64,000 bases of DNA from Candidatus Collierbacteria bacterium RIFOXYD2_FULL_45_13. Its GTDB lineage: Bacteria; Patescibacteriota; Microgenomatia; UBA1400; MFAQ01. Made by a program: the position numbers and the translations under genes. Location of the stretch: NCBI GenBank assembly GCA_001774685.1, contig MFAS01000001.1, forward strand, positions 287,557 through 351,556. Reading direction: 5' to 3'. Below, in pieces: positions 5,460-61,316 of this stretch (its first letter is position 1; each line of letters begins with the position of its first letter). The notes beneath the pieces were generated by a model. The model did no database searches. It was not told the DNA's origin and saw nothing but the letters and a program-made list of their open reading frames with translations.

Positions 5460-5468
5460 TGATACAAT
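5460..5468 (+). promoter_or_regulatory. extended -10 promoter TGATACAAT, 6 nt upstream of ATG (leaderless configuration)
   Basis: TGnTAnAAT ending 6 nt before the ATG at 5475. No SD sequence. Confidence 0.4.
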
Positions 5469-5474
5469 CTATTT

Positions 5475-5681
5475 ATGTTCAAGAATATTATTGCTCCGGT
5501 ACAGGCTTGGCTTCTCTCACGAGGCGTTTGCGTCGGCTGTGGTACACCATTAACAGATGGTCAAAGTAAACCTTCCACCAAGGTTAAAGATTGCGACCAG
5601 GTTACCTGCAAGTGTGGCCGGGTTTTTGTTTATAATCCCAAGACCAACACCTATCGCCGTGCTCTCTTGAGCGAAATATAA
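5475..5681 (+). CDS. small zinc-ribbon protein (CxxC...CxC), hypothetical
   Basis: 68 aa with CVGCG...CKCG cysteine pairs. Compact spacing within the operon. Confidence 0.5.
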   Translation: MFKNIIAPVQAWLLSRGVCVGCGTPLTDGQSKPSTKVKDCDQVTCKCGRVFVYNPKTNTYRRALLSEI

Positions 5682-15278: not shown

Positions 15279-15755
15279 ATGAGATCCAAGAAAACCCCAG
15301 CCAAAAAAATCCAACTTGACCCTGTTTACGGCAGCCCTTTAATTGCCAAACTTATTACCAGTGTCATGCAAGATGGGCGTAAATCAGTTGCCGCCAAACA
15401 AGTATACAAAGCTATTGATATCGTAGCTGAACAAACCAAGCAAGACGGTGTCGAATACTTACACGCCTCTTTGGACAACATCAAACCCACCATCGAAGTC
15501 CGCTCTCGCCGTGTCGGCGGTGCTTCCTACCAAGTCCCTACCCCTATCCGTCCAGAGCGTCGTGATTCTCTTGCCATTCGCTGGCTGATCAACGCCGCCA
15601 AAGCTCGTGGAGCCAATCCTTATCGCACTCTGGCCGACAAGCTCGCCGCTGAGATCGTCGAGGCCCACGAAAACGCCGGTGCCGCTATCAAAAAGAAGCT
15701 GGATACCCACAAGATGGCTGAAGCCAACAAGGCTTTCGCCCACTTCCGCTGGTAA
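15279..15755 (+). CDS. rpsG: 30S ribosomal protein S7
   Basis: Typical S7 length and sequence, adjacent to rpsL. Confidence 0.93.
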   Translation: MRSKKTPAKKIQLDPVYGSPLIAKLITSVMQDGRKSVAAKQVYKAIDIVAEQTKQDGVEYLHASLDNIKPTIEVRSRRVGGASYQVPTPIRPERRDSLAIRWLINAAKARGANPYRTLADKLAAEIVEAHENAGAAIKKKLDTHKMAEANKAFAHFRW

Positions 15756-15796
15756 TTGGTGATTCCGCCCTTCGCTCTATTAGACTCCCCTTATCG

Positions 15797-15826
15797 ATTG
15801 TGATATAATACCCCATAACGTTTTCG
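15797..15826 (+). promoter_or_regulatory. conserved promoter motif copy 1: TTGTGATATAATACCCCATAACGTTTT (extended -10 plus conserved downstream block)
   Basis: TGATATAAT extended -10 followed by ACCCCATAACGTTTT. Near-identical copies at 16381-16410 and 42083-42104. Confidence 0.5.
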
Positions 15827-15859
15827 TCGCCCTTTCCCATTTTCTTCAAGGAGTATTCA

Positions 15860-16327
15860 ATGACCATTTTCCAGACTGTTATTCCACCTTATATTGACCC
15901 CCAAACGCGGCTCGAACTTTGGTCTGTTACCATTTTCGAGTTCGACGGGAAATATTATGCCAACCGTACCCTTCGCCAGGTCTCCACTTGGGAGGCGGAT
16001 GGTAAGTCTGTGTTGAAAGCAGTGGACGTACCCGCCAAAGTTTACGGTCCTGGTGACCCAATGATTCTCATCTCATTCCGCATGGGTAAACAAGCTGGCG
16101 TACTACTTCGCACCCGCACCGAGTTTGAGGCTTTAACTAAGGATTTTCCTATTAGGACTCAGCAAGAAGAGGCCGAGTGGCGGGAACAGGTATTAAACCT
16201 CGCAAAGTTGAGTTTTCTGAAGACTGAACATCGGATTCTTGAGCTCAAAGTTTCTCTGGCTCAAACTCAGATTGATCTCTGCCAGGCACTGGTCTCGGCT
16301 CTTCGCGAACCTCAGCCGAAGAACTGA
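15860..16327 (+). CDS. hypothetical protein (155 aa), own promoter and terminator
   Basis: AAGGAG RBS, monocistronic between the motif promoter and the terminator. No recognisable domain. Confidence 0.6.
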   Translation: MTIFQTVIPPYIDPQTRLELWSVTIFEFDGKYYANRTLRQVSTWEADGKSVLKAVDVPAKVYGPGDPMILISFRMGKQAGVLLRTRTEFEALTKDFPIRTQQEEAEWREQVLNLAKLSFLKTEHRILELKVSLAQTQIDLCQALVSALREPQPKN

Positions 16328-16351
16328 CTCCAACTTCCCTTGAAACGCGAA

Positions 16352-16375
16352 CCCCTGCTAGCCAGGGGTTTTATT
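16352..16375 (+). terminator. intrinsic terminator (cccctg/cagggg stem + TTTTATT)
   Basis: 6-bp GC stem, 5-nt loop, T-run. Confidence 0.6.
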
Positions 16376-16380
16376 ATGTT

Positions 16381-16410
16381 TTGTGTTACAATACCCCATA
16401 ACGTTTTAAG
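16381..16410 (+). promoter_or_regulatory. conserved promoter motif copy 2: TTGTGTTACAATACCCCATAACGTTTTAAG
   Basis: TGTTACAAT extended -10 plus identical ACCCCATAACGTTTT block. Upstream of the membrane-protein gene, which has an AGGAGG RBS. Confidence 0.5.
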
Positions 16411-16444
16411 TTCTTTCCAAATCTAGCTCGTATAGGAGGTCTCG

Positions 16445-17011
16445 ATGGGCGTTTTTCAAGGACACCAAGTTGCCTCATTGCTTGGCACTTTAATCATGGC
16501 GGTGTGGTTCATTCTGCCTCTGATCTTCAAAAAGCTGGAGATCATGCCAAAGATTGGAAGAGGTATGAAGTTCTGGGATTACTTCTTGGTGTACGCGTAT
16601 GCTCTGCTGATTCCGAACTCGACCTATGCGATGTTTGAGATCAGACACTTGCTCTACTTGGATGGCGTCGCTGACCTCCTCAGCATCTCCTCGTTTGTGG
16701 TTTTTGGAAGCCTTTCATTGATCGGCCTCTTAACCACGATCTGGGGCATCCGGCTGGTGGTGGACCACTATGCCAAGTCCAAGAAAGAAAGGGCCATTTA
16801 CACTATCGCTCTGTCTACCATCTGTAGCTTTGGGGCTGTGGTTGGTATCATGCAGTTCGCTAGCTTCCCAGCGATCCTCTTCCCTCCAGTTCTTATTCTC
16901 TGTGGAATAGAACTGCTCGCCAGACCCCATCTCATTCTCGTCGCCCTTGCCACCACTCTTTTTCTCTTTATTCTGAATCTCCTTCTCGACTATTTTCACC
17001 AACCCACCTAA
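16445..17011 (+). CDS. hypothetical integral membrane protein (188 aa, about 5 TM)
   Basis: Multiple hydrophobic helices, AGGAGG RBS. Stop codon sits inside the terminator stem. Confidence 0.6.
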   Translation: MGVFQGHQVASLLGTLIMAVWFILPLIFKKLEIMPKIGRGMKFWDYFLVYAYALLIPNSTYAMFEIRHLLYLDGVADLLSISSFVVFGSLSLIGLLTTIWGIRLVVDHYAKSKKERAIYTIALSTICSFGAVVGIMQFASFPAILFPPVLILCGIELLARPHLILVALATTLFLFILNLLLDYFHQPT

Positions 17012-17027
17012 TCAGTGGGTTGTTTTA
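17001..17027 (+). terminator. intrinsic terminator (aacccac/gtgggtt + GTTTTATT)
   Basis: 7-bp stem, 7-nt loop, T-run. Confidence 0.6.
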
Positions 17028-17124
17028 TTACGTTTCACGAAGGCGTTCAGTCATGGTTAGCCCTTAACCGCGCATCCCTACCAGGCTTCCATACTTGCTA
17101 AACATTCATATCGTATTCGTTCTC

Positions 17125-17152
17125 AACCCAAGCTTTAACACTTGGGTTTTTT
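17125..17152 (+). terminator. second intrinsic terminator (aacccaag/cttgggtt + TTTTTT) about 100 nt after the first
   Basis: 8-bp stem, 8-nt loop, 6 T. No ORF between the two terminators. Confidence 0.55.
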
Positions 17153-17177
17153 GTGAGTCGGATTTGAAATAATTTAC

Positions 17178-17186
17178 GGGTAGAAT
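17178..17186 (+). promoter_or_regulatory. -10 element GGGTAGAAT, 6 nt upstream of ATG (leaderless configuration)
   Basis: TAGAAT ending 6 nt before the ATG at 17193. No SD. Confidence 0.35.
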
Positions 17187-17192
17187 AGGTCT

Positions 17193-18203
17193 ATGGAACA
17201 GTCATCAGCCGACACGGAACTTAAAAAAACGGACTCAAAAGCAGAAGATGTCATAGCCAAATCACATTTTGCTGGCAATTTTTCAGAGATTGGCGATTCT
17301 GTTGATCCAAACAAAGACTTATTCATGATCTCTCTCGATTCAATAGCCGATAAAATCAAATTTCTTCCAATACTGCCTAGAGGGTATGGAATCGCAGGTG
17401 GAACTGCAAGGAGCGCATTGTTGGAGCTACTTGGCGAGGATGCACCAAGGGCTATTGATCTCGACGTAGAGGCAATTGGGGAACTTATGCCAGATTTTTC
17501 AAAAAGAGAGGAATTGGCTAATATTTTTCAACAGAATGGTCGGGTTGAGCCGATTTCCGACCAAGGAAGCTTAATTAACTATTTTAGCTCCCGTGATTTC
17601 ACGATAAATGAGGTCTTCATTTATGGGAACAATCTCTACTTTTCCCGCCGAGCCATTCAAGATATGGAGAACAAGATCATTAGGCCTACCGAAAGTGAGA
17701 CTGGTTACGACAATTTCCCGCCCAGCGACGATGTTGTTGATTGGGGATCAGTAAAACCCAAGCTTCTAGTCAAGGCTCTTCTTCTTCAAATTGAATTCAT
17801 CAAACAATTTGGGGATGGGTCAATCCAAGATGCTGAGAGGTGGCGGTGGTCCTTTAACGACATCCCCGCTTTCAACATTGCTCTCGGCTTAGATAAGGCA
17901 ACGAAAAAGAAGGTTGGGTTGGAATTCATGAAGAGACTATTCGAGCTTGGTACTATTGATAAACGCGATATTCCAGAAGGTCTTACCCCTGAAGGGATCA
18001 GGAGATTGGCTGGTCTGACAAAACACTGGATGATACGTGACGGTGACGAGCGAGATTTCCAGTTTAGTGATGATTACTTCGACCAAGAGTACCCAGAAGG
18101 GTGGGAGTCAGCAGACGATAAGAAATTCGAAGAGATCTACACTCAGGCTGTCTCTCGGGCGGTTAAGATCAAGAATGTTGACCAAGAAGAACTACAATAT
18201 TAA
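17193..18203 (+). CDS. CCA-adding enzyme / poly(A) polymerase family nucleotidyltransferase-like protein (head domain, 336 aa)
   Basis: GIAGGTARSALLELLGEDAPRAIDLDVE matches the Pol-beta nucleotidyltransferase G[GS]..R..LL...DxD. RDFTINEVFI matches the conserved RRD(F/L)TINA motif of class II tRNA nucleotidyltransferases. Confidence 0.55.
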   Translation: MEQSSADTELKKTDSKAEDVIAKSHFAGNFSEIGDSVDPNKDLFMISLDSIADKIKFLPILPRGYGIAGGTARSALLELLGEDAPRAIDLDVEAIGELMPDFSKREELANIFQQNGRVEPISDQGSLINYFSSRDFTINEVFIYGNNLYFSRRAIQDMENKIIRPTESETGYDNFPPSDDVVDWGSVKPKLLVKALLLQIEFIKQFGDGSIQDAERWRWSFNDIPAFNIALGLDKATKKKVGLEFMKRLFELGTIDKRDIPEGLTPEGIRRLAGLTKHWMIRDGDERDFQFSDDYFDQEYPEGWESADDKKFEEIYTQAVSRAVKIKNVDQEELQY

Positions 18204-18256
18204 CAAGCCTCCTATTCTAAGGGACCTTCGAATCCTGGACATGACCGAGACGCTTG

Positions 18257-18265
18257 TGGTAAAAT
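18257..18265 (+). promoter_or_regulatory. candidate extended -10 TGGTAAAAT upstream of fusA
   Basis: TGnTAnAAT match about 75 nt upstream of the fusA ATG. Confidence 0.3.
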
Positions 18266-18278
18266 TAGCCTCGTCAAT

Positions 18279-18305
18279 ACCTCTCCTTTAGTGGGGAGGT
18301 TTAGT
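18279..18305 (+). terminator. weak hairpin (cctctcc/ggggagg with one GU pair) + TTT
   Basis: Could terminate the nucleotidyltransferase gene or form part of the fusA leader. Confidence 0.3.
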
Positions 18306-18340
18306 TCGTCAATAACAAATAACTACCAACTAACACTAAA

Positions 18341-20464
18341 ATGGCCGCTCCAACCGGAAAAAAAGTCCCTCTAGACCGTGTTCGAAACACGGGAATCATT
18401 GCCCACATCGATGCTGGCAAAACCACCACCACCGAACGTATTCTTTTTTATACCGGTAAGTCCTACAAAATAGGGGATATCGACGAGGGCAACACCCAGA
18501 TGGACTGGATGGAGCAGGAAAAAGAACGTGGTATCACCATCGTGTCCGCCGCGACGACCGCTTTCTGGACCCCTGTTTTACCCCATGCCCGTTTTAAAGA
18601 AGAACATCGCTTCAATATTATTGATACTCCGGGGCACGTCGACTTTACTGCCGAGGTAGAGCGTTCACTCCGCGTTCTTGATGGAGGGGTTATCGTTCTG
18701 GATGCCGGATCAGGTGTTCAATCTCAGACCGAAACCGTTTGGCGTCAAGCCGACAAGTATCACGTCCCCCGTATCGCATTTATAAACAAAATGGACGTTT
18801 TGGGTGCCGACTATATGGCCACCATTAAAGACGTTCATGAAAAATTAGGTGCCAAAACCGCCATTATGGCACTACCTTTAGGGGTCGAAAACACTTTTAG
18901 AGGTATTGTTATGCTTCTCGAGAGAGAAACCATCGTTTGGAAAGGGGATGAAACCGGGGCTTTATATGAAGTAACCGAAGGCTTTCCTGAAGAAATGAAG
19001 GACGAATGCGAGCTCGAACGCGCTAAACTAATCGAATCTATCGTTGAATTTGATGAAGTCCTCATGGGTGAATACTTGGATGGTAAAGAGCCCGGTATGG
19101 ATGCACTCAAAGCCGCTCTTCGCACTGCCACCTGCAAAAATCAGATTGTCCCCGTGTTCCCCGGCTCATCACTTCGTAATAAGGGTGTCCAGCCTCTTCT
19201 TGACGCTGTCGTCGACTTTCTTCCATCACCTCTAGACAAACCTCTTACGGCCGGGATCAACCCTGAGACCAACGAAGAAGAAATTCGCAAAGCCGATCCC
19301 GGTGAGCCATTTTCGGGGTTAGCCTTTAAGATTCAAGCCGACCCACACGTAGGTAAACTCACGTATGTCCGTGTTTATTCAGGCAAAATTACCTCCGGTA
19401 CCTTTGTTTATAACGCCAGCAAGCGCGAACGTGAACGTCTTGGTCGCTTAATGCTAATGCATGCCAACACCCGCGAAGAAGTCTCCGAAGCTGGTGCGGG
19501 AGAAATCGTTGGTGTTGTCGGTCTCAAAGCCACCAAGACAGGGGACACTCTGTGTGATGAAAACAAACCCCTAATTCTTGAGTCAATTAACTTTCCGGAT
19601 CCAGTCATATCTCTTGCAATTGAGCCAAAAACAAAAGCAGATCAGGAAAAACTCGACCTTGCTCTTGGTCGTCTTGCCGAAGAAGATCCCACCTTTAGAA
19701 TCAAAACCGATCATGAAACCGGCCAAACCGTTATCGCCGGCATGGGTGAGCTTCACCTTGAGATTTTAGTCGACCGTCTCCGTCGCGAATTCAAAGTTGA
19801 AGCCACTACAGGCGCCCCCCAAGTTGCTTACCGTGAAACCATTACCAAGTTCGCCAAAGGCGAAGGTAAATATATCCGTCAATCCGGGGGACGCGGTCAA
19901 TATGGTCACTGTATTCTGGAAGTTACCCCCAAACCTCGCGGCGAAGGTCTTACTTTCACCAACAAAATTGTGGGTGGTGCAATCCCCAAAGAATTCATTT
20001 CTCCCATCGAAAAAGGCGTCCGCGAAGCTCTGGATAATGGAGTTATTGCCGGTTTCCAGATGGTTGATCTTGATGTAGCTGTTGTCGATGGAAGTTTCCA
20101 CGAAGTTGACTCTTCCGAAATGTCCTTCAAAATTGCCGGCTCTATGGCAGTTCAGGACGCAGTCAAGAATGCGTCTCCGGTAATTCTCGAACCTATTATG
20201 AAGGTGGAAGTCACCACTCCCGAGGGTAATATGGGTGACATTATTGGTGATCTTTCTTCCCGCCGTGCCCAAATTGCCGGTACCGCCCAGCGTGGCAACG
20301 CCCGCGTTATTACGGCCACGGTCCCCTTATCCGAACTTTCCGCTTACGCTACCGCCATCCGTTCTCTAACCGCTGGACGTGCCTCGTATTACATGGAGCC
20401 CTCACATTATCAAGATCTTCCAAATAGTTTGGCCGCCAAACTCTTGAAATCCCCGACAAACTAG
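18341..20464 (+). CDS. fusA: elongation factor G
   Basis: [18 protein letters not shown]..., DTPGHVDF, full-length EF-G. Confidence 0.95.
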
Positions 20465-28999: not shown

Positions 29000-29344
29000 A
29001 TGAACAAACACTTAACTAGCCAACAAATCAGAGCCGGTCGTATTCGAGCCAAGCTGCTTTCGGTCACCACCAGACCACGTTTGACCGTCAATCGATCCAA
29101 CTCACACATTTTTGCCCAGATTATCGATCAAAAAGGTAAAGCTCTCGTCGCCTACGGCTCTCAGGCTCTGAAAAAATTCAAAGGCACCAAAACGGAAATG
29201 GCTACCGAAGTCGGCAAGAAACTTGGTGAAATGGCCAAAGAGAAAAAGGTGACTACTGTCGTCTTCGATCGTGGTTCATACCGTTTTCATGGCCGCGTCA
29301 AAGCTTTGGCGGAAGCCGTTCGTGCCTCCGGTCTCAAATTCTAA
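29000..29344 (+). CDS. rplR: 50S ribosomal protein L18
   Basis: Position and size, typical L18 C-terminus. Confidence 0.9.
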
Positions 29345-29373
29345 TAACCAATAACTAATAACGAATAACTAAA

Positions 29374-30427: not shown

Positions 30428-31141
30428 ATGAACATTACCGTAATCAGTTCTGGACCTCTTTCTGAAGAAACCAAAGCCTTGCTGGCTAAACTATATGAGA
30501 CCGTTGATCAAGTAATGGCTGTAGGTGAATACCGTATGGGATTTCGGACCGCCAAGATCCGGAATGGTATTCTCTACTGGCCGAAAGTCGAGGGAGGCTA
30601 TCTGGCCATCGACTCTCTGATCCGGAAAATGCACGATGCGGATACAAACCTGAAGCGTCTGGACGAAAACTTCTCTGTAGACCTCGACGACGTCGCCATC
30701 TTGGCTGAAGTTCTCGAGGAGTGTCTCAAACAGGCAGAGGGTGGTATGTTCAACCCCTCTCGGCGTCTCCAGCGCGCAGTTCAATCCATGCTCTATTCAT
30801 TCAAGAACTTATTCCCTGGAATGAAGTCGTACATGGGACAACCTCTGAACGAAGAGTTCGTTGTTTTAAGGGTCAGTTTTGACTACTACGCTCGTAAGGT
30901 CATCGCCGCGGGCGAGGAAGCCATGAAACTGGTCAACTCCAAGATCATCGACGGTCGGTTGTTCCTGAAAAGCGATGATGGATACTTGGTCGTTGACCCA
31001 GACAGCCAAGGTGGATCCTCACTGTTTCGATGCCCGGACCTCAATTTTGCGAACGCAAAAGCGGTTGGGGGCATTAGTTTTGCGAACGAACGGCAATACC
31101 GAGACATGTTTATTAGTTGGTTAAACGAAGCCGGGCTCTAA
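30428..31141 (+). CDS. hypothetical protein (237 aa) inserted between rplO and secY
   Basis: AAGGAG RBS, followed by a strong terminator. No recognisable motif. Confidence 0.6.
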   Translation: MNITVISSGPLSEETKALLAKLYETVDQVMAVGEYRMGFRTAKIRNGILYWPKVEGGYLAIDSLIRKMHDADTNLKRLDENFSVDLDDVAILAEVLEECLKQAEGGMFNPSRRLQRAVQSMLYSFKNLFPGMKSYMGQPLNEEFVVLRVSFDYYARKVIAAGEEAMKLVNSKIIDGRLFLKSDDGYLVVDPDSQGGSSLFRCPDLNFANAKAVGGISFANERQYRDMFISWLNEAGL

Positions 31142-31204: not shown

Positions 31205-31250
31205 AGTACAATCCAGCTAGTTTGCATTCACTTTGACAAAGGAGTCTCAC

Positions 31251-31760
31251 ATGAGGAAATTTACCATCATCTGGTCGCTATCTTACTTGATCTTAGCTGC
31301 GGCAATGTTCGGGAGCAGCTTTCTAAGGCCTTGCGGTCCCATGACTGGCACAGGACTGTCCTGTGATTTTTCATACGGCATGAAAGCCACGATTGATATG
31401 CCTGCCGAAGTGTCGGTGGGTAGTTTCGCACCATTCACCGTGGCCTATTACTCGGATGGAGCGCTGGTTCCGATCGAAACCTTGAATCTTGGCGGTTTCT
31501 ACTATGTCGTTTTCAACACCACTGGAGCAACTGAGTTATATATGGTCAAAGCCGCCGGTGGTATTCGCTCTCCTACCATCGGAGTCGATGCACTTACAGA
31601 TTATCCGACCCTGCATGTTGTTCGTACCTGGCGGAATGTCCCACTTCAGGTGTGGAAATGGTATCTCTCTCCGGTCTTTTTCCTATGCACCATTATGTCT
31701 ATTTTGCTGCTGATGGCGGCTAGAAGCAGTTTGAAAAACAACCAAAACCACGCCGGCTAA
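31251..31760 (+). CDS. hypothetical secreted/membrane protein (signal-anchor plus C-terminal TM)
   Basis: Start at the ATG at 31251, preceded by AAGGAG. N-terminal hydrophobic segment and a C-terminal TM helix. Confidence 0.55.
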   Translation: MRKFTIIWSLSYLILAAAMFGSSFLRPCGPMTGTGLSCDFSYGMKATIDMPAEVSVGSFAPFTVAYYSDGALVPIETLNLGGFYYVVFNTTGATELYMVKAAGGIRSPTIGVDALTDYPTLHVVRTWRNVPLQVWKWYLSPVFFLCTIMSILLLMAARSSLKNNQNHAG

Positions 31761-31789: not shown

Positions 31790-32206
31790 ATGTTAAATAT
31801 GCTTGCATTCCTTGGCGTATCAAAGCCGGGAGACATTAAGCTACAAGTTCGTTCTGGAATGATGAACGGTGCCATCAGATTTTTTCGGGAAATAAGGTGG
31901 TTTGAAGTTACCGATCGTAAAGTTAACCAGCCTTGGGGCCAGACCAGATATTTCACTCCGGCCCTGAATAGTTTGGTTGTGGGTTTGTTCGAATCGTCCC
32001 ATGATCCAGACGGATTGACAATGACTCAGAGCCAGCTACCCCTTCATTTTGAGGATGTCGCCCCAGAAGTTGCTGCACGAGCGATCCTCGCGTGGGCCGA
32101 CTACGCGGAAGCTGGTGAGGGAGCTGCCATAGTATCGTACGATGAAGGCGCCCGGTGGCTAGTTTATCTGCCGGCCATCTTCACCTTCGCCATCGAGATC
32201 GTCTGA
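31790..32206 (+). CDS. hypothetical protein (138 aa)
   Basis: AAGGAGG RBS. No recognisable motif. Confidence 0.55.
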   Translation: MLNMLAFLGVSKPGDIKLQVRSGMMNGAIRFFREIRWFEVTDRKVNQPWGQTRYFTPALNSLVVGLFESSHDPDGLTMTQSQLPLHFEDVAPEVAARAILAWADYAEAGEGAAIVSYDEGARWLVYLPAIFTFAIEIV

Positions 32207-32318: not shown

Positions 32319-33086
32319 ATGCCATTCAAATCATGGAACGAAATGACGGATGGACAAGAAGGTGAGTCACCTTTTTCACCAACCGGACCAACAGGGGATA
32401 TTCCTCGAACAGCAGAATCATCAGACTTGTTAACAAAGGCTGGTACGGGAGAAACATTAGATCCCGTTGCAGCAGAAAAGGCTCGCAAAAAATATCGAGC
32501 GCAGTCCAGTCAGGATATTGGCCGACTTCAGGCGAACTCCGTTTCGAGTGACATGGGTTTTGGCAACCCGGGTGAAGCCGACACCGATGAGGAAGCTCCA
32601 GAAGATTATTCTGAGGAAATTTCTCATGACGGCTATCAAGTTATTCGACCGGCCAATGCAGGTCAAGTTGAAAAACAACTCCAGACCAAACTTAAAAAAA
32701 GTTATACCGAATCAACCGATCCCCAAGATATAGAAGGTGAGAAGGATAACTGGATCGGTGACTCACCCACACTTACCGAAGCAGATCTACCTCATTTCAA
32801 TGCTAATGAACACAATCGTGAACCAAAAGGAGATAATAGTCGAATCGATATGGGTCGCTACGATGCAAGGATGCCATCTCCTAACCTAGAATCATCTGCG
32901 TCGGATTTGGAGAAAGAAAATCAAGACCGCAAACTCTGGCGCGATCCATTAGTGCCGGAGTTGATGGATGAACCAGGATTCCCAGAAGAAATTGCCAAAG
33001 AAGAGCTCAGGTTAGCTAGAAAAAAGGGGTACGTAACCGAAGCACGGGAAGAAGAGATTAAAAAACGGGCGAGGGAAGGTCGATAA
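32319..33086 (+). CDS. hypothetical acidic low-complexity protein (255 aa, D/E/P/S-rich, probably disordered)
   Basis: No hydrophobic core or known motif. Basic C-terminal tail (KKRAREGR). Confidence 0.5.
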   Translation: MPFKSWNEMTDGQEGESPFSPTGPTGDIPRTAESSDLLTKAGTGETLDPVAAEKARKKYRAQSSQDIGRLQANSVSSDMGFGNPGEADTDEEAPEDYSEEISHDGYQVIRPANAGQVEKQLQTKLKKSYTESTDPQDIEGEKDNWIGDSPTLTEADLPHFNANEHNREPKGDNSRIDMGRYDARMPSPNLESSASDLEKENQDRKLWRDPLVPELMDEPGFPEEIAKEELRLARKKGYVTEAREEEIKKRAREGR

Positions 33087-34994: not shown

Positions 34995-35255
34995 TCATCT
35001 TCTGCGTCTTAGCCACCACCCCTTAAAGAATGGCAGAGTCAAAGTCGATAGGAGAAAACCGATTGCCGGTATAATCGCATTCAGCCACGGATTACTCACC
35101 TTTATTGCCCACATGTACAACCCGACACTTAGATAAGTAAACGTTGCCAGCAATAGTTTCCGCAAGCCACTTGTCTCCCAAGCCTTATCTCCCTCCACTT
35201 TCTTGTTTCTTGATTCAATTTTCAAAACTCTTTTTTCCAATTCAGAAACCTTCAT
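34995..35255 (-). CDS. small membrane protein, hypothetical (86 aa)
   Basis: N-terminal charged coiled segment then two hydrophobic helices. Convergent with adk. Confidence 0.4.
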   Translation of the reverse strand: MKVSELEKRVLKIESRNKKVEGDKAWETSGLRKLLLATFTYLSVGLYMWAIKVSNPWLNAIIPAIGFLLSTLTLPFFKGWWLRRRR

Positions 35256-35331
35256 TTCTACATTATACGTCGACCGCCGTTATAACAAAACAAATGTAAA
35301 ATATACAATATAAAATGACAAATATTTCAAA

Positions 35332-36379: not shown

Positions 36380-36388
36380 TGCTAAAAT
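36380..36388 (+). promoter_or_regulatory. extended -10 promoter TGCTAAAAT followed by ACCCG
   Basis: TGnTAnAAT about 38 nt upstream of the ATG at 36427. TAGGAGG RBS. Confidence 0.4.
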
Positions 36389-36426
36389 ACCCGATATTCT
36401 CGCATTTTTACATTTAGGAGGCTGAT

Positions 36427-36834
36427 ATGTCCGGTAATTATATTATTCTTCATGCCGCCGATACTTCGGGAAAAGCAGACGAACTTCAGATGGATCTCCT
36501 GTTCGAAGGATTTGCCACCATCACCATCTCGGAGGTCCTTCTCCAGGGTCCTTTAAACATCCCCGAGCTGATCGAATCAGAGCTTGGTGTGATCATCGTT
36601 CTTAGCGATGATCTTTTGAAAGATATCGTCTGTCTCACCATGGCCAAGCAAGCCATGAGAGTTCAAAAGGGCACCGTTATTGTGTTTGACAAGATCTCCG
36701 CTCCAGAGTGGGCTGGGCAACCTTTCAAGTTAGTCCCTGGAGTTCTCTATGAGGTTGATTGGGAGTTTTTCCTGACCAAGCTACGCTCTGTTGAGCGCAT
36801 TTCTCGCCTTGGTGAAGAAGACATCCCAGAATAA
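36427..36834 (+). CDS. hypothetical protein (135 aa) inserted between map and infA
   Basis: Strong RBS, own promoter and terminator. No confident domain call. Confidence 0.55.
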
Positions 36835-36917: not shown

Positions 36918-36926
36918 TGGTAGAAT
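36918..36926 (+). promoter_or_regulatory. extended -10 promoter TGGTAGAAT upstream of infA
   Basis: Identical nonamer to the one upstream of rnpB on the minus strand at 63466-63474. Confidence 0.4.
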
Positions 36927-36946
36927 ACCACTTGCACAACTTTTAT

Positions 36947-40657: not shown

Positions 40658-41137
40658 ATGGCACAAAAACTATCCAAAAAATCAAAAATTGCTGTAAAAC
40701 CAGTCAAGACCGCACCAGTCAAAAAGGGGTCTTTATCGATGCCCAAAGAATTCTTCTCTGCTGTCGGCAGACGTAAAACCGCAATTGCGCGTGTCCGCAT
40801 CTGGCCGGGCAAACAAGAGCTTACTGTCAACGGTAAGCCGATTTCTGCCTACTTCAAAGGGGAAACCTTCAAAAAGATTTATCAGGCACCCTTTACGGTC
40901 ACTGAAACTCTTGGTCAATACACCGGCAGTATCAAAATCGCCGGCTCCGGCTTAATGTCCCAGGCAAACGCCATGGTCCACGGTATTGCCCGTGCTTTGG
41001 TAAAAGTAAACTCAGACCAATACAAACAGATTCTGAGAGACAAAGGTTTCATTACCCGCGACTCCCGTATGAAAGAAACTCGTAAAGCCGGTCAAGGTGG
41101 CCGAGCCCGCGCCAAGAAGCAAAGCCCAAAGCGTTAA
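40658..41137 (+). CDS. rpsI: 30S ribosomal protein S9
   Basis: GRRKTAIARVRIWPG.., C-terminal basic tail ..KRAKKQSPKR. Confidence 0.92.
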   Translation: MAQKLSKKSKIAVKPVKTAPVKKGSLSMPKEFFSAVGRRKTAIARVRIWPGKQELTVNGKPISAYFKGETFKKIYQAPFTVTETLGQYTGSIKIAGSGLMSQANAMVHGIARALVKVNSDQYKQILRDKGFITRDSRMKETRKAGQGGRARAKKQSPKR

Positions 41138-42045
41138 ATCTTACCCAACAACGTTTTTGCCTCCAGTTCGAGGTTCAATTCGGTGCTCGTCACGCCATCT
41201 CTTTCGGCGTCAAAATACCCACCCATGACTCTGGACGCCAGCACCGGCGCAAACTCCTTATCATTCTTCTCGGTCCATTTATTAGTCTCCTTGAACATTT
41301 TCAAAAATTGCTCTGCCAAGTCCGGTCTCTGAAGTTTTGTGTATACCCGATGATAGAAGTAGGCTACGTCATAAAACTTCAGTCCGCCCATTTGGGCCGC
41401 TTCACTGTCGATCAAATAGTAATTTCTACTCTTGGTCTTCATTATTGCCCAAGGGGTAAAGTCCCCATGACTCGCCGCGATTTCGATATCTTCTTTTCTC
41501 TCTTTAATAAATCGAAGTAGTTTTTTAGTATCTCTGTTGGAACCATTAGCCCACTCTTCGGACTTCTGTTCCAATCTTTCCGGCCATACGGTTTTAAAAT
41601 ATTCTTTGTCTTTCGGTAGCAGGCTTACCTCGGCAAGCTCTATGATATTCTTTGCTATCTTCGCCGCCACCTCAATGTCTTTTTCGGAAACACTCGCCTT
41701 CTTTTGGCCCGGTTCGGCTAGCAGTTTTCCAAAAACAAACTCCCCGATAAACCAGTATTTATCTTGAAAATATCCTTCATCAAATACTTTTGGAATTCTA
41801 AATGTTTTAAGGTATTTTTTCCAGATGGTGTTTGTGTTCTCATTGAAACATTTTTCGTTCCATGTCCTTTCTCCAATCTCTTTAGTACTCGCCAGTTTCA
41901 GAAAAAGTTTCTCGTTTTCAAACTTGACCTGACCGGTCACGTGCCGCCACGGTTGTTCCAATTTTTGTATTCGGTACCCCAGATTTTCGAAGTGTCTGCC
42001 GACCTCCTCCAGGTTCATTTTTTCCGAGATTGTTTGGCCAGGCAT
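41134..42045 (-). CDS. aminoglycoside/choline kinase-like phosphotransferase (APH/ChoK family)
   Basis: HGDFTPWAIM (Brenner HGDxxxxN-like) and LIDSEAA (Mg-binding D of a DxE/DFG-like motif) at the correct spacing. 303 aa. Convergent with rpsI. Confidence 0.55.
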   Translation of the reverse strand: MPGQTISEKMNLEEVGRHFENLGYRIQKLEQPWRHVTGQVKFENEKLFLKLASTKEIGERTWNEKCFNENTNTIWKKYLKTFRIPKVFDEGYFQDKYWFIGEFVFGKLLAEPGQKKASVSEKDIEVAAKIAKNIIELAEVSLLPKDKEYFKTVWPERLEQKSEEWANGSNRDTKKLLRFIKERKEDIEIAASHGDFTPWAIMKTKSRNYYLIDSEAAQMGGLKFYDVAYFYHRVYTKLQRPDLAEQFLKMFKETNKWTEKNDKEFAPVLASRVMGGYFDAERDGVTSTELNLELEAKTLLGKI

Positions 42046-42082
42046 TACTTCATTATATCCATATGTTTAATTTATGAATCGT

Positions 42083-42104
42083 CCGTGATATAATACCCCA
42101 TAAC
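42083..42104 (+). promoter_or_regulatory. conserved promoter motif copy 3: CCGTGATATAATACCCCATAAC
   Basis: TGATATAAT plus ACCCCATAAC, identical to copy 1 over 19 nt. Followed by AAGGAGG and a TTG start. Confidence 0.5.
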
Positions 42105-42560: not shown

Positions 42561-42575
42561 AGTTAAAATAACTCG

Positions 42576-43160
42576 ATGAAAATTTGTGGTTTAGACGAGT
42601 GTGGTCGAGGCGCTTTTGCCGGCCCTCTCGTGGCCGCCGCCGTCATAATAAATTGTGATCTGGAATCTATTCCGGCCCTCCTTCCCGTTCCTCTTCGGGA
42701 CAGTAAAAAACTCACCGAAATCCAACGAAACAAAATTGTCGCCTCTTTGCCGAAACTACCAGTGATCTACAAAATCGCCGAGATCTCTGTTTCTGAAATA
42801 AATCAGTTTGGCATGGGCTGGGCCAACCGCCAGATTTTTGATAACCTTATCTCCGGAATCCAGGCTAATCTCTTTATTGTTGACGGAAATCTAAAGTTTA
42901 CCAATCCTGCCGTCAGAACGCTGATCAAGGGAGACGATAAATGCTACCAGGTAATGCTGGCGAGTATTATCGCCAAAGTCTATCGTGATAATCTCATGTC
43001 CAAACTTCACCAGGACTTTCCGGAATATGGCTGGGATAGAAACTCCGGCTACGGCACTGCCGAACATATCCAAGCTATCAAGCAATTTGGCCAAAACCTC
43101 CACCATCGATCCCAGTATATTGCTAGCTGTTTATCTCGGCAGTGGCCGAGGGGGGTATAA
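42576..43160 (+). CDS. rnhB: ribonuclease HII
   Basis: ICGLDECGRGAFAGPLVAAAV N-terminal DEDD motif context, typical RNase HII. Confidence 0.9.
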   Translation: MKICGLDECGRGAFAGPLVAAAVIINCDLESIPALLPVPLRDSKKLTEIQRNKIVASLPKLPVIYKIAEISVSEINQFGMGWANRQIFDNLISGIQANLFIVDGNLKFTNPAVRTLIKGDDKCYQVMLASIIAKVYRDNLMSKLHQDFPEYGWDRNSGYGTAEHIQAIKQFGQNLHHRSQYIASCLSRQWPRGV

Positions 43161-44198: not shown

Positions 44199-47100
44199 AT
44201 GGGAAAAATAAAAACCTTCTTAGGTTCTTTGCGTCCTTGGCAACTTTTTGGTATTCTGTTTGCATCGGTCGGACTGCTCGTCTCTGTCATTCTCGCTTCG
44301 CAGTATCTTCAGCGCTCCGCCAAGCTCAAGCTCGGTTCGACTTCCGGACTTTTGCTCACAGCAGATAGACAAGACTCTCTGGGGACTTTCCAAGACTCCA
44401 CCTTTACCTTAAAGTCCGATCAGGACCTTACGGTTGCCAGTCTGAAGAACAGCGTTATTTTTTTCCCTGAAATAGATTTCGATATTCGTGAGGTCAATCC
44501 CCGCCAGTTTAGTATTTCCCCCAAAACACTTCTGAAGAACAACAGTCTGTATCGCATCAAAATCCTTGCCGAACAGAAGACCTTTTCCTGGGCCTTCCAG
44601 ACCAAAAACGATTTTCGCGTGATTCAGACACTTCCTCGTGACCAAGCAAACTATGTACCTCTTAATTCTGGGATCGAGATTACCTTCAGTCATGACAACT
44701 GGGCCGATATTGGTTTGAAAGAAGGAAATTTTGAAATCACTCCGGCCGTCGATGGCCGTTTTGAACGCCACAAGCGCACCCTGTCTTTCGTCTCCAAAGG
44801 TCTCACACCTGGCACGCTTTACACTATTAAGATTAAAAAAGGTCTAAAACTAAACGGCACTACCGAAACACTCAAAGAGGACTTTGTTTTCCGTTTTGAG
44901 ACTCAACCTTCTAATGTTGGACAGACACTCGGGTTTGCCCGAAACTTTTACGAATTTTCACCTTCGGAAACACCAGCCTTCGATATTTACACCTCTGCTT
45001 CCGGTGGTGGGGATCTTTCTGTTCAAGTTTATCAGTATTCCGGTTTTTCGGGCTTTAATTCAGACTTCAACACTCTCCTATCCATTCCCTCTTGGGCCTA
45101 CAACTCACTTCATTCCAAGCGATTACCGGTCACTAGTCTTACGAAAGTTCTAGACTTCCACACCCCCATCCATCAGCAGACATACACCAACTTCTTCTTA
45201 TTTCCTCAAACTTTACCTAAAGGGTATTATTTGGTCGAATCAAACTTAGGTAGCGTTTCCACCCAGGCCCTAGTTCAAATTACCGATATATCAGCTTATC
45301 TTAGCTCAAGCGGGACCAAAACTCTGGTTTGGGTCAATGATATCGAGTCCAAAAAACCGATTTCCGGTGCCAAGATAAATTTCGGAGGAAAGGTACAGGA
45401 AACCGGATCCGAAGGAGTCGCTTATTTTGATACTCCCCAGTCGCAGATAGACGAACCATCGGCCATCACAGTTAGTTACGGCGACAGCCATCTGCTTCTG
45501 CCTCCGAAAAACTCTGGCAATTACTACTACTCAAAATACCAGCAAACCAGACGAGTGTTAGACAAATACTGGAGTTATTTCTACACCGACCGGCCGGTTT
45601 ATCTTCCTATCGATAGCGTCAAATTTTGGGGACTGCTTCGGGACCGAGATAATCTTAGTCAAAAACAAAAGTTCACCTTAGAAGTCACCCGGTCGGATTA
45701 CACCGGTTGGGATTTCAACCCCATCATCCTGTTTACCAAAGATTTTGAAACCAGCGATCTGGGCACTTTCACTGGTGAAGTCCCTTTGTCGGGTTTTAAC
45801 CCCGGCTGGTATGGAATCGCCCTCAAGATGGGGGACTCTGTGGTCATGAGCTCTTCTTTCACTGTGGCCACTTACACCAAGCCGGCTTACCGCCTCACCC
45901 TCCAATCCTCCAAGAAGGCCGCTATCATCGGAGAGACCATCTCTTTCACCGGACAAGCCACTTTTTTTGAAGGTTCACCGGTACCTGGGATGAACCTAAA
46001 ATACACCAGTCGTGACACCAAAGGCTCTGTAACGACCGATTCGTTGGGTAGATTCAGTTTTAGTCAAGTCGCTTCGATGAGGCCAAGCTTCGTTAACTAT
46101 TCTCCTGAATATACCTACCTTTTCCTTCGACCATCGCAAATGGAAGAGGGCGACATCCAGGCTGACGTGTCGGTAGCGGTTTTCAACTCTTCTTTAGCCT
46201 TCAATTCCATGAAATCGGAATCAAAGGGAAACATCGGTCGGGTGGAGTTGGATCTGCGGCAGGTAGACACTTCAAGGTTTGTCCCCTATACCTCGTTGGA
46301 CAATTTTACCCCTGCTCCGGGCCGGACTGTTACCGGCACTCTTATGGAGAACCAGTGGAACCGTCGTGAGGTCGGTACCTATTACGACTTTATCAATAAA
46401 GTCACCTCCCCAAGATATGAATACGACCGTATCCAAAACAAAATCGCCGATATTAGTTTAACTACCGATACCAACGGTAAAGCCGTCTATGAATTTCCGG
46501 TCGCGGAAGGCAAATCTTACAATGTTATTTTTCGCGCTTCGGATGATCAAAGCAGGACAACCACCCAAGATATTTACGTTTCCGGATCTGCCGATAATTA
46601 TCCTCGAAACAACTATGTCTTCCTAAAATCGGACAAATCAGGTTTCAACGATCCTTTCGCCATCGGTGAGCCGGTTAACCTTACTGTCATGCGGGGAGAA
46701 TCCCCCATGTCCTCCACCGATTCTGACAAATTCCTGTATCTGTTTGCCCAGAGAGGCATCAAGTCTTTCCAGATCTCAGATGATTCAAATATCAGTTTCA
46801 AGTTCTCTGATGCCTTCATTCCCAACATCTCGGTTCGGGCTATTAGATTTACCGGTAAAACCTACGAAGTTTCCGAAGGATTAAATCTGATGTTCGATAG
46901 TTCAGCCAAGAAACTCTCTCTGGACGTTACCATGGATAAATCTTCCTATCTCCCGGGAAGCACTGCCAGGCTTTCTGTTCTTTCCAAAGATTCACACGGT
47001 TCTCCGGTGCCGGCCGAGGTCAATTTATCTTTCCTCGACGAAGCCTACAACGCCATAAACCCCGTTACAGTGGATCCTCTTGCCAGAATTTTCAGTTCCC

Positions 47101-51097: not shown

Positions 51098-52033
51098 GAC
51101 CTGGCCCCTAAAATACTCAATTGTCTTCGCCAGTCCCTCTCTAAGAGCTACTTTTGGCTTCCACCCAAGTGATTTTTCTGCCAAAGAAATATTTGGCCTT
51201 CTAACTTTTGGATCATCACCCGGAATCGGCCGGAACGCCGTTTTGCTAGTTGATTCCGGAATCATTTCCAAGACCACCCGAGCTAGCTCTTTCATAGTAA
51301 ATTCGTCAGGGTTACCTATATTCACTGGTCCTATAAACCCATCTTTATTTTCCATCATCAGTGTCATTCCTTCGATCAAGTCGCTCACATACTGGAAACT
51401 TCTTGTCTGGGTACCGTCACCATAGATGGTGATTTCTCTATTGGTCAAAGCTTCCACGATGAAACTGCTGACTACCCGGCCATCATTTGGATCCATATTT
51501 GGACCATAAGTATTAAAAATACGGATCAACCTTATCGGTGTTTGGTATTTTCTGAAAAAATCCATGCAAATAGTTTCCGCAGCCCGCTTTCCTTCGTCAT
51601 AGCAGGACCTGATACCACACGGGTTCACATTCCCCCAGTAACTTTCTTTTTGCGGGTGCTCCAAAGGATCTCCGTAGACTTCGGAGGTGGATGCTTGGAG
51701 TACCGGTATATTTCCGTTTTTTCGTGATAGCTCCAGTATGTTATTCATTCCAAGGACAGAAGTTCTCCAGGTAAAGACTGGATCTTTTTGATATGCCGGA
51801 GGAGAAGCGGGACATGCCAGGTTATATATCCTATCCAAACCATTAATCTCCATCGGTGCAGTAATATCCTCTTCAATTACTTGAAAATTAGAGTCACCCA
51901 GAAGGTCGGCAATGTTTTGTCTTCTGCCAGTAAAAAAATTATCCACACAAAGCACCTCATTGTTTTCATCCAGAAGTCTTTTACATAGATGAGACCCCAA
52001 AAACCCCGCGCCCCCGGTTACCAATATTTTCAT
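51092..52033 (-). CDS. UDP-glucuronate decarboxylase / UDP-xylose synthase-like NAD-dependent epimerase/dehydratase
   Basis: TGGAGFLGSHL Rossmann motif, YxxxK context, high overall resemblance to UXS-type SDRs. 313 aa. Confidence 0.8.
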   Translation of the reverse strand: MKILVTGGAGFLGSHLCKRLLDENNEVLCVDNFFTGRRQNIADLLGDSNFQVIEEDITAPMEINGLDRIYNLACPASPPAYQKDPVFTWRTSVLGMNNILELSRKNGNIPVLQASTSEVYGDPLEHPQKESYWGNVNPCGIRSCYDEGKRAAETICMDFFRKYQTPIRLIRIFNTYGPNMDPNDGRVVSSFIVEALTNREITIYGDGTQTRSFQYVSDLIEGMTLMMENKDGFIGPVNIGNPDEFTMKELARVVLEMIPESTSKTAFRPIPGDDPKVRRPNISLAEKSLGWKPKVALREGLAKTIEYFRGQVL

Positions 52034-52101
52034 TTCTCTATTCTAGACCATCATTACTTGATTTTGCATATTTTCAAAACACTGGTATACATATAGTTAG
52101 T

Positions 52102-60185: not shown

Positions 60186-60270
60186 GTCATTACGAATCTC
60201 CTGCCCGCAGATGCTAGAGCATCTGCTCTTGCAGGCGGGCGTACTCGAGCTGTGGCAATCTCACTCCATC
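60186..60270 (+). repeat. repeat element R copy 1 (intergenic, 85 bp): GTCATTACGA...20-bp perfect palindrome...GGCAATCTCACTCCATC
   Basis: Termini shared with copies at 60383-60445 and 60918-60964. Inner palindrome gcagatgct-ag-agcatctgc at 60207-60226. Confidence 0.55.
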
Positions 60271-60293: not shown

Positions 60294-61316
60294 ATGAATA
60301 ATGTTTTAGTCATCTGCGGTCCCACCACCTCCGGTAAAACCTCCCTAGCTCTCTCCATCGCAAAGCAAATAATCTCGAACCAGTCATTGCGAGGAGCGAA
60401 GCGACGTGGCCCGCTGGTACCCGAAGGGGTAAATCTCACTCCACCAGGATCAGTCAACCTCCTCTCCGCCGACTCCCGACAGATATACAAGGGTCTGGAC
60501 ATTGTTACAGGCAAAGATATTCCTACAGATCTCCCTCCAAACATTTGTTTTTTTGGTTTGGATTTGGTCGAGCCCAACCAAAGCTTTAATCTCGCTGACT
60601 ACTTGGATTATTCCAAAAAAATAATTCAAAGCTCGATAAAAAGCCATACTCCGCTGATTATTGTGGGCGGTACTGGTTTATACCTGAAAGCCATTACTAC
60701 TGATTTGCTGACTGTCAGAGTTCCTCCAAATAGATTACTTCGTCTGGATCTCGAGAAACTTGATTTACCGGCTCTTCAGTCTCGTCTATCAATATTAAAT
60801 CCTCAAAAATTCTCCTCCCTGAATAATTCTGATCTCAATAATCCCAGACGTCTCATCCGCGCCATCGAAATCTCAACCTACGACAATTCACAATCTGCCG
60901 CTTTCTCTTCCTCCAACGTCATTGCGAGTTTCGGTACTCCGAACCGCGGCAATCTCACTCCATCAAACTTTCTTTGGGTTGGCCTTAAAGTCGATAAAGA
61001 AATTCAGAAATCCCGGATCAATCATAGAGTCATTGATAGATTAGAAAACGGAGCGGTGGAAGAAGTAAAAAACTTAATTGCAAAATACCCCGACCTCCAC
61101 TTGCCAATCTACACCAGTCTAGGCGTCAAACAGATTCTTCAATTCCTGCACCAAGAAATCCCTCGAGAAACGCTGGTAGACCTATGGGCGGCTTCCGAAG
61201 TAGATTATGCTCGTCGGCAAACGGTCTGGTTTAAAAAACAACCCGGCATAGTTTGGTATGATAAAAGTACGGTAGACGACCATCTTATCGCTAAGTTAGC
61301 CGAAATATATAAATAA
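60294..61316 (+). CDS. miaA: tRNA dimethylallyltransferase (340 aa) carrying two in-frame insertions derived from repeat element R
   Basis: P-loop GPTTSGKT, SADSRQIY, typical MiaA. Extra segments ..SLRGAKRRGPLVPEGVNLTPPGSV.. and ..VIASFGTPNRGNLTPS.. coincide with repeat copies. Confidence 0.85.
   Translation: MNNVLVICGPTTSGKTSLALSIAKQIISNQSLRGAKRRGPLVPEGVNLTPPGSVNLLSADSRQIYKGLDIVTGKDIPTDLPPNICFFGLDLVEPNQSFNLADYLDYSKKIIQSSIKSHTPLIIVGGTGLYLKAITTDLLTVRVPPNRLLRLDLEKLDLPALQSRLSILNPQKFSSLNNSDLNNPRRLIRAIEISTYDNSQSAAFSSSNVIASFGTPNRGNLTPSNFLWVGLKVDKEIQKSRINHRVIDRLENGAVEEVKNLIAKYPDLHLPIYTSLGVKQILQFLHQEIPRETLVDLWAASEVDYARRQTVWFKKQPGIVWYDKSTVDDHLIAKLAEIYK
60383..60445 (+). repeat. repeat element R copy 2 (63 bp, in-frame inside miaA)
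   Basis: GTCATTGCGAG...GGTAAATCTCACTCCACC. Corresponds to a roughly 20-aa insertion after the MiaA P-loop helix. Confidence 0.55.
60918..60964 (+). repeat. repeat element R copy 3 (47 bp, inside miaA)
   Basis: GTCATTGCGAG-ttcggtactccgaa-ccgcGGCAATCTCACTCCATC. The 17-mer GGCAATCTCACTCCATC is identical to copy 1. Confidence 0.55.

Follow-up and report, generated by a model that had tools for sequence, protein, structure and literature searches.

Three hypothetical genes in a stretch of a Collierbacteria genome (64,000 nt, hereafter the window) encode proteins of 155, 188, and 132 aa with no detectable mutual similarity (FamA, FamB, and FamC), yet all three lie behind nearly the same 19 bases. 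This raises the question of what holds so much sequence constant around a −10 element, and what in the cell reads it. A first, sequence-only reading had reported three near-identical motifs, each built on an extended −10, and they were found where it had placed them, all on the + strand. The pattern TGnTAyAATACCCCATAAC occurs three times in the 64-kb window versus 0.06 occurrences expected, the 19-mer has exactly three matches even when up to three mismatches are allowed, and 0 of 100 dinucleotide shuffles reach three. Copies 1 and 3 are TGATATAATACCCCATAAC, and copy 2 is TGTTACAATACCCCATAAC. The features discussed below are as follows.

15801-15819, + strand: copy 1; TG at 15801-15802, −10 hexamer TATAAT at 15804-15809, block ACCCCATA at 15810-15817, then AC
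A15815, T15816, or A15817, + strand: predicted transcription start of copy 1, based on leaderless genes and the RNase P RNA 5′ end
15860-16327, + strand: FamA, 155-aa orphan protein behind copy 1
16349-16371, + strand: FamA intrinsic terminator
16384-16402, + strand: copy 2; TGTTACAAT followed by ACCCCATAAC, directly 3′ of the FamA terminator
16445-17011, + strand: FamB, 188-aa predicted membrane protein behind copy 2, with a weak, sub-threshold DUF1361 match
17000-17022, + strand: FamB intrinsic terminator
36380-36396, + strand: degenerate class member, TGCTAAAAT followed by ACCCGATA (7/8 block positions), before the next gene
36427-36834, + strand: hypothetical gene (135 aa) behind the degenerate copy; no family match
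36918-36934, + strand: borderline variant, TGGTAGAAT followed by ACCACTTG (5/8 block positions, hand count), in a region assigned to putative infA
42086-42104, + strand: copy 3; TGATATAAT followed by ACCCCATAAC, 19 nt 5′ of the FamC TTG start codon
42124-42522, + strand: FamC, 132-aa orphan protein behind copy 3

Within the window, ACCCCATAAC follows a hexamer only in the three reported copies. A start codon with an AGGAG(G) Shine-Dalgarno sequence lies 19-42 nt 3′ of each window copy, and when the instances from relatives are included, the Shine-Dalgarno sequence and start codon lie 19-52 nt 3′ of the block end. The weaker variants that had been noted upstream of the 36427 gene and at 36918 are real as well, with the partial matches to the block listed above.

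Extent of the block and the class it defines

Conservation was profiled over 12 instances that were not picked by the exact scanned pattern; they were chosen at no more than three mismatches in 10, which somewhat inflates the information content. TG and TAnAAT are invariant in all 12 and, as in the three window copies, TG stands one base 5′ of the hexamer. The eight positions that follow the hexamer are A (10/12), C (9/12, the other three being T), C (12), C (11), C (10), A (10), T (9), and A (12). Information is unbroken from TG through the hexamer to the eighth base after it, weak at the ninth, and none from the tenth on; none was found 5′ of TG across the 12 instances. The block, with four consecutive C in ACCCCAT, is a G+C-rich segment between −10 and +1, and it carries ∼10-12 bits (a figure inflated by admitting instances with up to three mismatches). 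The third position of the hexamer drifts; the block does not.

The longer extensions that had been described on both sides are not general features. Relatives show no preference for any of the four bases directly before TG, so TTGTG is not a common 5′ extension. The 3′ GTTTT is found only in window copies 1 and 2 and in two copies on a related contig (L006), that is, in FamA and FamB leaders, and it is absent from copy 3 and from other families. Overall, the similarity among copies covers 19-27 nt, and at most ∼45 nt between copies 1 and 2.

The placement of the block is also strict. Of 17 occurrences of bare ACCCCATA in 220 kb, 14 directly adjoin a −10 hexamer of like orientation; three lie in genes or are shifted by 2 nt, which is within chance (6.7 expected). 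There are no free-standing, auxiliary, or inverted copies in intergenic regions of these 220 kb, and the register of block to hexamer is fixed across about eight gene families. The 8-10 bp of the block have no dyad or direct-repeat symmetry; nothing is repeated except ATAA, at a distance of 10 bp, and one of its two copies is the −10 itself.

Where transcription begins can be estimated from genes that lack a leader. Apparent leaderless genes, in which the hexamer is followed by 6 nt and ATG, occur at 5475, 17193, and 42576 (+ strand) and at 35255, 42045, and 52033 (− strand), and the RNase P RNA model begins at the seventh base after its hexamer. We infer that the start in the Collierbacteria window genome is the seventh nucleotide after the hexamer, in which case the block would span about −6 to +1/+2. 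It would thus comprise the discriminator and the start site, with at most two to three conserved bases transcribed. Because conservation extends from TG to the predicted start, in a fixed register, without symmetry, and never free-standing, the block is probably a DNA-level discriminator/start-site element rather than an RNA leader.

This bears on an earlier suggestion that the motif includes a conserved 5′ leader, which did not survive: conservation ends at the eighth to ninth base after the hexamer (i.e., at the predicted start), Rfam gave no family at the gathering threshold in the window and none at E up to 1 in 15700-18400, and the leaders are unstructured, folding no better than shuffles (z = +1.6, −0.2, and −0.6). 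We consider it very improbable that the block is a leader RNA element or a site for site-specific recombination. A cassette-like arrangement of the genes (see below) could hint at recombination, but there are no inverted repeats and no recombinase nearby, the conserved bases predicted to be transcribed are too few for a leader element, and every copy is oriented and spaced from the start codon as a promoter would be.

Some observations concern translation initiation. The genome seems to mix leaderless and strong Shine-Dalgarno initiation (5460-5477, 17181-17195, and 42564-42578 on the + strand; 35255-35270, 42045-42060, and 52033-52048 on the − strand), and the rpsL leader is 13 nt without a Shine-Dalgarno sequence. 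Separately, AATAACCAATAAC is found just 5′ of the start codons of translation genes (window 29343-29355, L014 6320, L018 17488, and L021 15269; in L018 and L021 the gene is fusA). This A-rich leader has no Shine-Dalgarno sequence and constitutes a separate conserved leader motif.

The −10 part of the module is not unusual. TGnTAnAAT without a conserved −35 is a common promoter form in this genome, preceding rpsL, fusA, tuf, secY, RNase P RNA, and others. The block, in contrast, is absent from the promoters of rpsL, fusA, tuf, secY, tRNA-Pro, and RNase P RNA. Matches to ACCCCATA were counted at each TGnTAnAAT of the window and of the loci of five relatives, and the histogram is bimodal, with 2, 6, 8, 5, 1, 2, 1, 3, and 2 intergenic sites having 0 to 8 matches, respectively. 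Three more 8/8 sites were labeled genic; these are presumably window 42086, L018 10571, and L022 11650, which lie under spurious ORFs. Intergenic sites in the outgroup (three more distant relatives) never exceed 3/8. The block defines a discrete promoter class, and it is not simply the commonest housekeeping context, an outcome under which the original proposal would have lost its point. A test for compensation by the −35 element showed no significant difference (match of 2.8 versus 2.4 of 6, p = 0.5, with few comparison sites). It should be noted that not every inserted gene uses the block: four hypothetical genes without Pfam matches (30428-31141, 31233-31760, 31790-32206, and 32319-33086) lie between rplO and secY (both assigned by size and position), and their promoters lack it.

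The same distribution speaks to the idea that the block is a G+C-rich discriminator of the rRNA ("stringent") type, which would form short-lived open complexes that track nucleotide pools, alarmones, or supercoiling without any specific reader. C-rich non-template discriminators do destabilize open complexes in model systems, discriminator G/C content sets sensitivity to supercoiling and ppGpp across phyla (PMC8422995), and the genes in question adjoin ribosomal operons. However, for such a role the composition would suffice and the exact 8-mer would not be required, and the stable-RNA and ribosomal-protein promoters themselves (tRNA-Pro, RNase P RNA, rpsL, fusA, and tuf) are without it. We give this explanation little chance of being correct.

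Relatives and genomic setting

An exact scan with GTGnTAyAATACCCCATAAC over one genome per species (596 Gb) returned eight matches, versus ∼9 expected by chance (hand estimate). Three of the eight are on contigs of one MAG labeled Woesebacteria (DeMMO3_54), one is in a Collierbacteria MAG, and one is on L006, a 103-kb contig whose RpoC is 96% identical to that of the window. Matches outside the clade (Clostridia and other high- or low-GC contigs: L001, L003, L004, L009, L011, and L016) were dismissed, as they are at the chance expectation of ∼9 per 596 Gb. A scan of metagenomes added L012, which is from the window's own population and has a locus identical to that of copy 2, as well as L013, L014, L015, and L017. 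A relaxed pattern, applied within the loci found, disclosed neighboring copies that the exact scan had no means of selecting: two tandem copies in L006, three in L017, and one in L013, in which TGGTAAAAT uses the rpsG stop codon.

A sample that is independent of the motif was obtained by fetching rpsG neighborhoods via S7 homologs. Block promoters (no more than two mismatches in 8) were found in L018 (S7 96% identical), L020 (89%), L031 (88%, two promoters), L021 (86%, two promoters), and L022 (80%), and were absent from the rpsG neighborhoods of L019 (88%), L029 (81%), L023, L024, and L030 (77%-78%), and L025 (67%). At no more than one mismatch, the in-clade loci fetched in this way have six sites versus 0.51 expected (0/300 shuffles), and the outgroup loci have zero. 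In this comparison, which covers ∼0.3 Mb of clade DNA, the block is confined to relatives with S7 at least 80% identical, though it is not present in all of them. About eight orphan families have it in front of them, and within the variable gap between rpsG and fusA it is often found in tandem. One promoter differs in what it drives: at L022 11650-11780, the product is a DEAD-box helicase, reached via a ∼110-nt leader with a GC-rich hairpin (ggccaggcagttagtctggc). No other block promoter combines a long leader with an annotated product.

The window (46.6% G+C) includes genes for rpsL, rpsG, fusA, L13, S9, RNase HII, RecA, and RNase Y. It also includes rpoB and rpoC, which were assigned by gene size and synteny with Pfam-annotated genes; other ribosomal-protein, tuf, secY, and map labels were assigned by size, position, and synteny. 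Copies 1 and 2 are between rpsG and fusA, each in front of a hypothetical gene with its own intrinsic terminator, and copy 3 follows the L13-S9 operon (rplM-rpsI). The rpsG-fusA gap (window 15756-18340; also L006, L013, L018-L025, and L029-L031) is a variable island that splits the str operon. Its cargo of 2-7 kb includes genes for an MTTB methyltransferase, radical SAM protein, poly(A) polymerase, HicA or ParE/YafQ-like toxins, DEAD/DEAH helicases, and Fic/Bro-N proteins. Tandem block promoters are direct repeats that flank cassettes of varying presence (e.g., L018 has rpsG, a block, and FamB without FamA). Recombination between block copies is plausible as a by-product of this arrangement. 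In the window itself, ∼100 nt between the terminators at 17000-17022 and 17125-17148 (within 17023-17148) have no ORF and no Rfam match; this stretch could be a small RNA or the remnant of a lost cassette.

The description of the genes as accessory is only partly apt: the positions of FamB and FamC are conserved across the clade, whereas the gap around FamA and FamB is highly variable. FamA has only five members in 5.8 billion protein clusters, and its 155 aa are 100% identical to a hypothetical protein of Candidatus Collierbacteria bacterium RIFOXYB2_FULL_46_14. Its AF2 model is confident (pLDDT 85.6) and has no PDB neighbor. Orthologs of FamB (34%-65% identity) are in L013, L018, L020, and L021, with an apparent one in L031 based on its VGVFQG N terminus. 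FamC has eleven relatives in 1.84 billion cluster representatives, and its AF2 model (pLDDT 86.8) bears a weak likeness to the tautomerase/MIF beta-alpha-beta fold; assignment as a tautomerase was rejected, given the weakness of the fold likeness and the lack of the N-terminal proline (Pro1).

Searches of the motif-led proteins against Pfam, PHROGs, NCBIfam, and PADLOC returned nothing significant, and no functional theme emerged among the block-led families. The empty PADLOC result led us to set aside a defense system. Phage origin was likewise rejected, with PHROGs empty for the window proteins and a viral-contig scan yielding one chance-level match (on a 34% GC contig). Two further observations concern protein sequences. 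In the giant proteins P0131 (2721 aa), P0136 (2375 aa), and P0133 (632 aa), 9-19 repeated stretches match 25 aa of FamC (residues ∼25-52); this is either a repeat module or a compositional match. The gene at 44199-49415 encodes a 1738-aa alpha-2-macroglobulin-like protein with a HINT/pretoxin-HINT domain at residues ∼993-1121, between the bait-region and A2M domains, which may be an intein-like insertion.

Selection on the block

How much conservation should be expected at these distances can be judged from rpoC. Identity at fourfold-degenerate sites between the window and every relative, including the closest (RpoC 94% identical), is 0.39-0.46, or about 44%, so neutral sites are near saturation. 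For FamC, orthology is supported by position: L007/L014 carry rplQ, rplM, rpsI, block, FamC, and a Memo/PGA_cap gene in that order, and L015 has the block, FamC, and the same downstream Memo/PGA_cap gene. FamC orthologs are 24%-29% identical, versus 78%-80% for the adjoining S9 and L13. In these loci the DNA from GTG via ATAAC to the Shine-Dalgarno sequence is nearly invariant and the upstream flank is unalignable. The FamB orthologs keep TGnTAnAAT followed by A(C/T)CC(C/T)ATA in four genomes, with a weaker TCCCGAAA in the fifth. In summary, proteins behind the block share only 24%-36% identity, and the block is exact. Because the block and −10 persist while neutral sites are ∼44% identical, the proteins have diverged, and the flanks cannot be aligned, the comparison indicates that the block is under purifying selection. 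The core of the sequence-only reading thus stands: conservation beyond the −10 is real and non-random and, judging from the relatives, kept by selection, and it marks a subset of promoters before lineage-specific genes.

It might be argued that descent alone accounts for the pattern, with one good promoter having been copied, cassettes gained and lost by recombination, and the block having no extra function. Promoter reuse is documented in prokaryotes (PMC3575422), and there are traces of it here: GTTTT and a leader segment, CTTTCC-A, are common to copies 1 and 2, the tandem copies of L006 share ∼35 nt of leader, and tandem direct repeats flank variable cassettes, as in the L018 example above. 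However, descent cannot keep 17-19 bases identical at ∼44% neutral identity with both flanks randomized, and it does not explain why the third hexamer position drifts and the block does not. Selection on the block itself is needed because descent alone cannot hold 17-19 bases over saturated divergence, and we regard descent without selection as improbable.

The block was also considered, and rejected, as part of a longer mobile repeat: nothing is conserved 5′ of TG, and the TCACTCCACC upstream of the DeMMO3_54 promoters is part of a separate repeat element. A palindromic element (…CGTCATTGCGAG, a GC hairpin, then GTGGCAATCTCACTCCACC) does recur in several genomes (window 60254-60270; L007 1349; L017 7651, 7603, and 5476; L008 1619; L014 3260; L019 1002 and 10516; and L021 14793). 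Directly at its 3′ end there is often a −10 that is preceded, at 17-18 nt, by TGGCAA; three block promoters of DeMMO3_54 are of this kind. Two in-frame copies lie inside the IPP-transferase (MiaA-type) gene at 60294-61316 (∼60385-60445 and ∼60905-60965), with added peptides such as SLRGAKRRGPLVPEGVNLTPP and VIASFGTPNRGNLTPS; these are reminiscent of Rickettsia palindromic elements.

Candidate readers of the block

The element is best filed either as a discriminator element of the core promoter or as an operator that overlaps it. The reading that we favor, with a probability of roughly 0.42, is that the block is read by the RNA polymerase holoenzyme, possibly via a dedicated sigma factor. On this view the element is a clade-specific core-promoter module, kept by selection, in which an extended −10 (TGnTAtAAT) is fused in register to an 8-nt C-rich sequence (A-y-C-C-C-A-T-A) at about −6 to +1/+2. 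Such modules drive self-contained cassettes: the promoter is followed by a leader that is short, unstructured, and rich in pyrimidines, by a strong ribosome-binding site (AGGAGG), and, for those in the window, by a terminator of their own. The encoded proteins are small orphans that evolve very fast, and their genes occupy fixed slots where translation-gene operons end (after rpsG, rpsI, and map).

The holoenzyme would read the block as the non-template strand of the open bubble, together with the adjoining −10 as one unit. This is proposed because the register is invariant, 14 of the 17 bare 8-mers are in register, the block is asymmetric, and it ends where polymerase contacts end: given the inferred start, its end at +1/+2 is the extent of the polymerase's non-template contacts. 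The contacts would presumably be those of sigma region 1.2 and the beta subunit, as in model polymerases. A beta-subunit basis for the clade specificity found no support, however. RpoB has only eight fixed differences between clade and outgroup, all conservative, and the segment DDIDHLANRR, which we take to be the part of the beta subunit that contacts +1/+2 in E. coli, is identical in both, so the core polymerase offers no explanation of the clade specificity.

There is precedent for sigma. Bases just 3′ of the −10 are read by sigma in a species-specific manner, with GGGA versus CCCT altering affinity 150-fold in Thermus and 7-fold in E. coli; the −6/−3 bases are read by sigma region 1.2 in both, GGGA being optimal and CCCT unfavorable (PMC3526302). 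The reader would most plausibly be either a sigma-70-family paralogue dedicated to these promoters or the primary holoenzyme in a distinct kinetic mode, because housekeeping promoters use the extended −10 without the block and a C-rich −6/−3 segment is unfavorable for model primary sigmas. Either reader would set the cassettes apart as one expression class. That the block is frozen although of an unfavorable type, and is unused by housekeeping promoters, argues against simple selection for strength with the primary sigma and favors a dedicated sigma paralogue, a special kinetic class, or a separate protein. Neither the window nor the loci of the relatives contain a sigma gene.

Two counterpoints must be weighed. 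The ∼10-12 bits, an inflated figure as noted, are far above model-bacterial discriminators and typical of a dedicated DNA-binding protein. In addition, the fixed register could stem from one ancestral promoter that bore an operator, as copies 1 and 2 share leader sequence. The block may accordingly be considered as the operator of a clade-specific repressor, a protein that would bind the duplex from −6 to +2, hold off an extended −10 that is close to consensus and constitutively strong, and place the cassettes in a one-signal regulon; a shared regulator-binding site was the main idea of the sequence-only reading. Sites over the −10 and +1 are the classic repressor location. The eight near-invariant, high-information positions would suit a repressor, as would a discrete class without housekeeping promoters and a narrow clade range with RpoB unchanged; so would a sequence unfavorable for model sigmas, which was probably not selected for promoter strength. 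Against this, the block is asymmetric and covers 8-10 bp with no dyad or direct repeat, whereas the sites of bacterial repressors typically show such symmetry over 12-20 bp. Its spacing from the −10 is constant across about eight families, no free-standing, auxiliary, or inverted intergenic site occurs, and conservation stops exactly at the end of the polymerase contacts. Among the window proteins scanned against Pfam, no DNA-binding protein was recognized; the gene divergent from copy 3 (41134-42045) has only weak kinase-like matches and is absent at that position in relatives. These features suit the polymerase no less than an operator. On balance, we keep the holoenzyme as the preferred reader and hold a repressor to be less likely, though a serious and the main rival in view of the high information content and the discreteness of the class.

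Comparison with known systems helps to define what is new. The module resembles extended −10 (TGn) sigma-70-type promoters in having TG one base 5′ of TAnAAT, no conserved −35, and a similar distance to the gene, but differs in that eight further 3′ positions are as conserved as the hexamer, and only in a subset of promoters. The Thermus GGGA downstream basal element, read by sigma region 1.2 (cited in PMC3526302), is likewise short, abuts the −10 in a fixed register, marks a subset of extended −10 promoters, and has species-specific strength. However, the Thermus element is GGGA, with CCCT as the unfavorable control in that work, whereas the sequence here is the opposite, ACCC; the block is also twice as long and includes the predicted start, and its recognition by sigma is putative.

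The G+C-rich discriminators of rRNA and tRNA promoters (PMC8422995) share a C-rich non-template strand from −10 to +1 and proximity to translation genes, but here the sequence is exact and it is absent from the genome's stable-RNA and ribosomal-protein promoters. Putative mobile promoters (Nijveen et al. 2012, PMC3575422) are also near-identical promoters before non-homologous genes, within and between genomes; the similarity here is 19-27 nt (maximum ∼45, copies 1-2), there is no mobile element, and the sequence is held by selection. A literature search found no description of promoter motifs in Patescibacteria/CPR.

Operators of the LexA, Fur, and CtsR type overlap the −10 and +1. Like the block, they are highly conserved sequences over the core promoters of several unrelated genes; unlike them, the block has no symmetry, a fixed register, no sites off the −10, and no regulator recognized in the window.

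The module provides a concrete, testable cis-code for one clade: its promoters are frozen by selection, and the genes they precede are almost free to evolve. About eight orphan protein families can be grouped on this basis into one expression class and studied together, and strong promoters, leaders, and terminators are at hand for genetic tools to be developed in these organisms. A further question that it raises is whether a discriminator read by polymerase itself can hold as much information as an operator. A more specific proposal, which we consider rather doubtful at present, is that a private regulon of small, extremely fast-evolving orphan proteins, encoded where ribosomal operons end, is under the control of a dedicated reader in this narrow clade, which would be a sigma-70 paralogue with a region 1.2 reading ACCCCATA or a repressor that acts as a monomer. 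The proteins may be host-interaction or episymbiosis factors coupled to translation capacity. If a dedicated reader is indeed involved, no transcriptional regulon or core-promoter code would have been defined earlier in Microgenomates.
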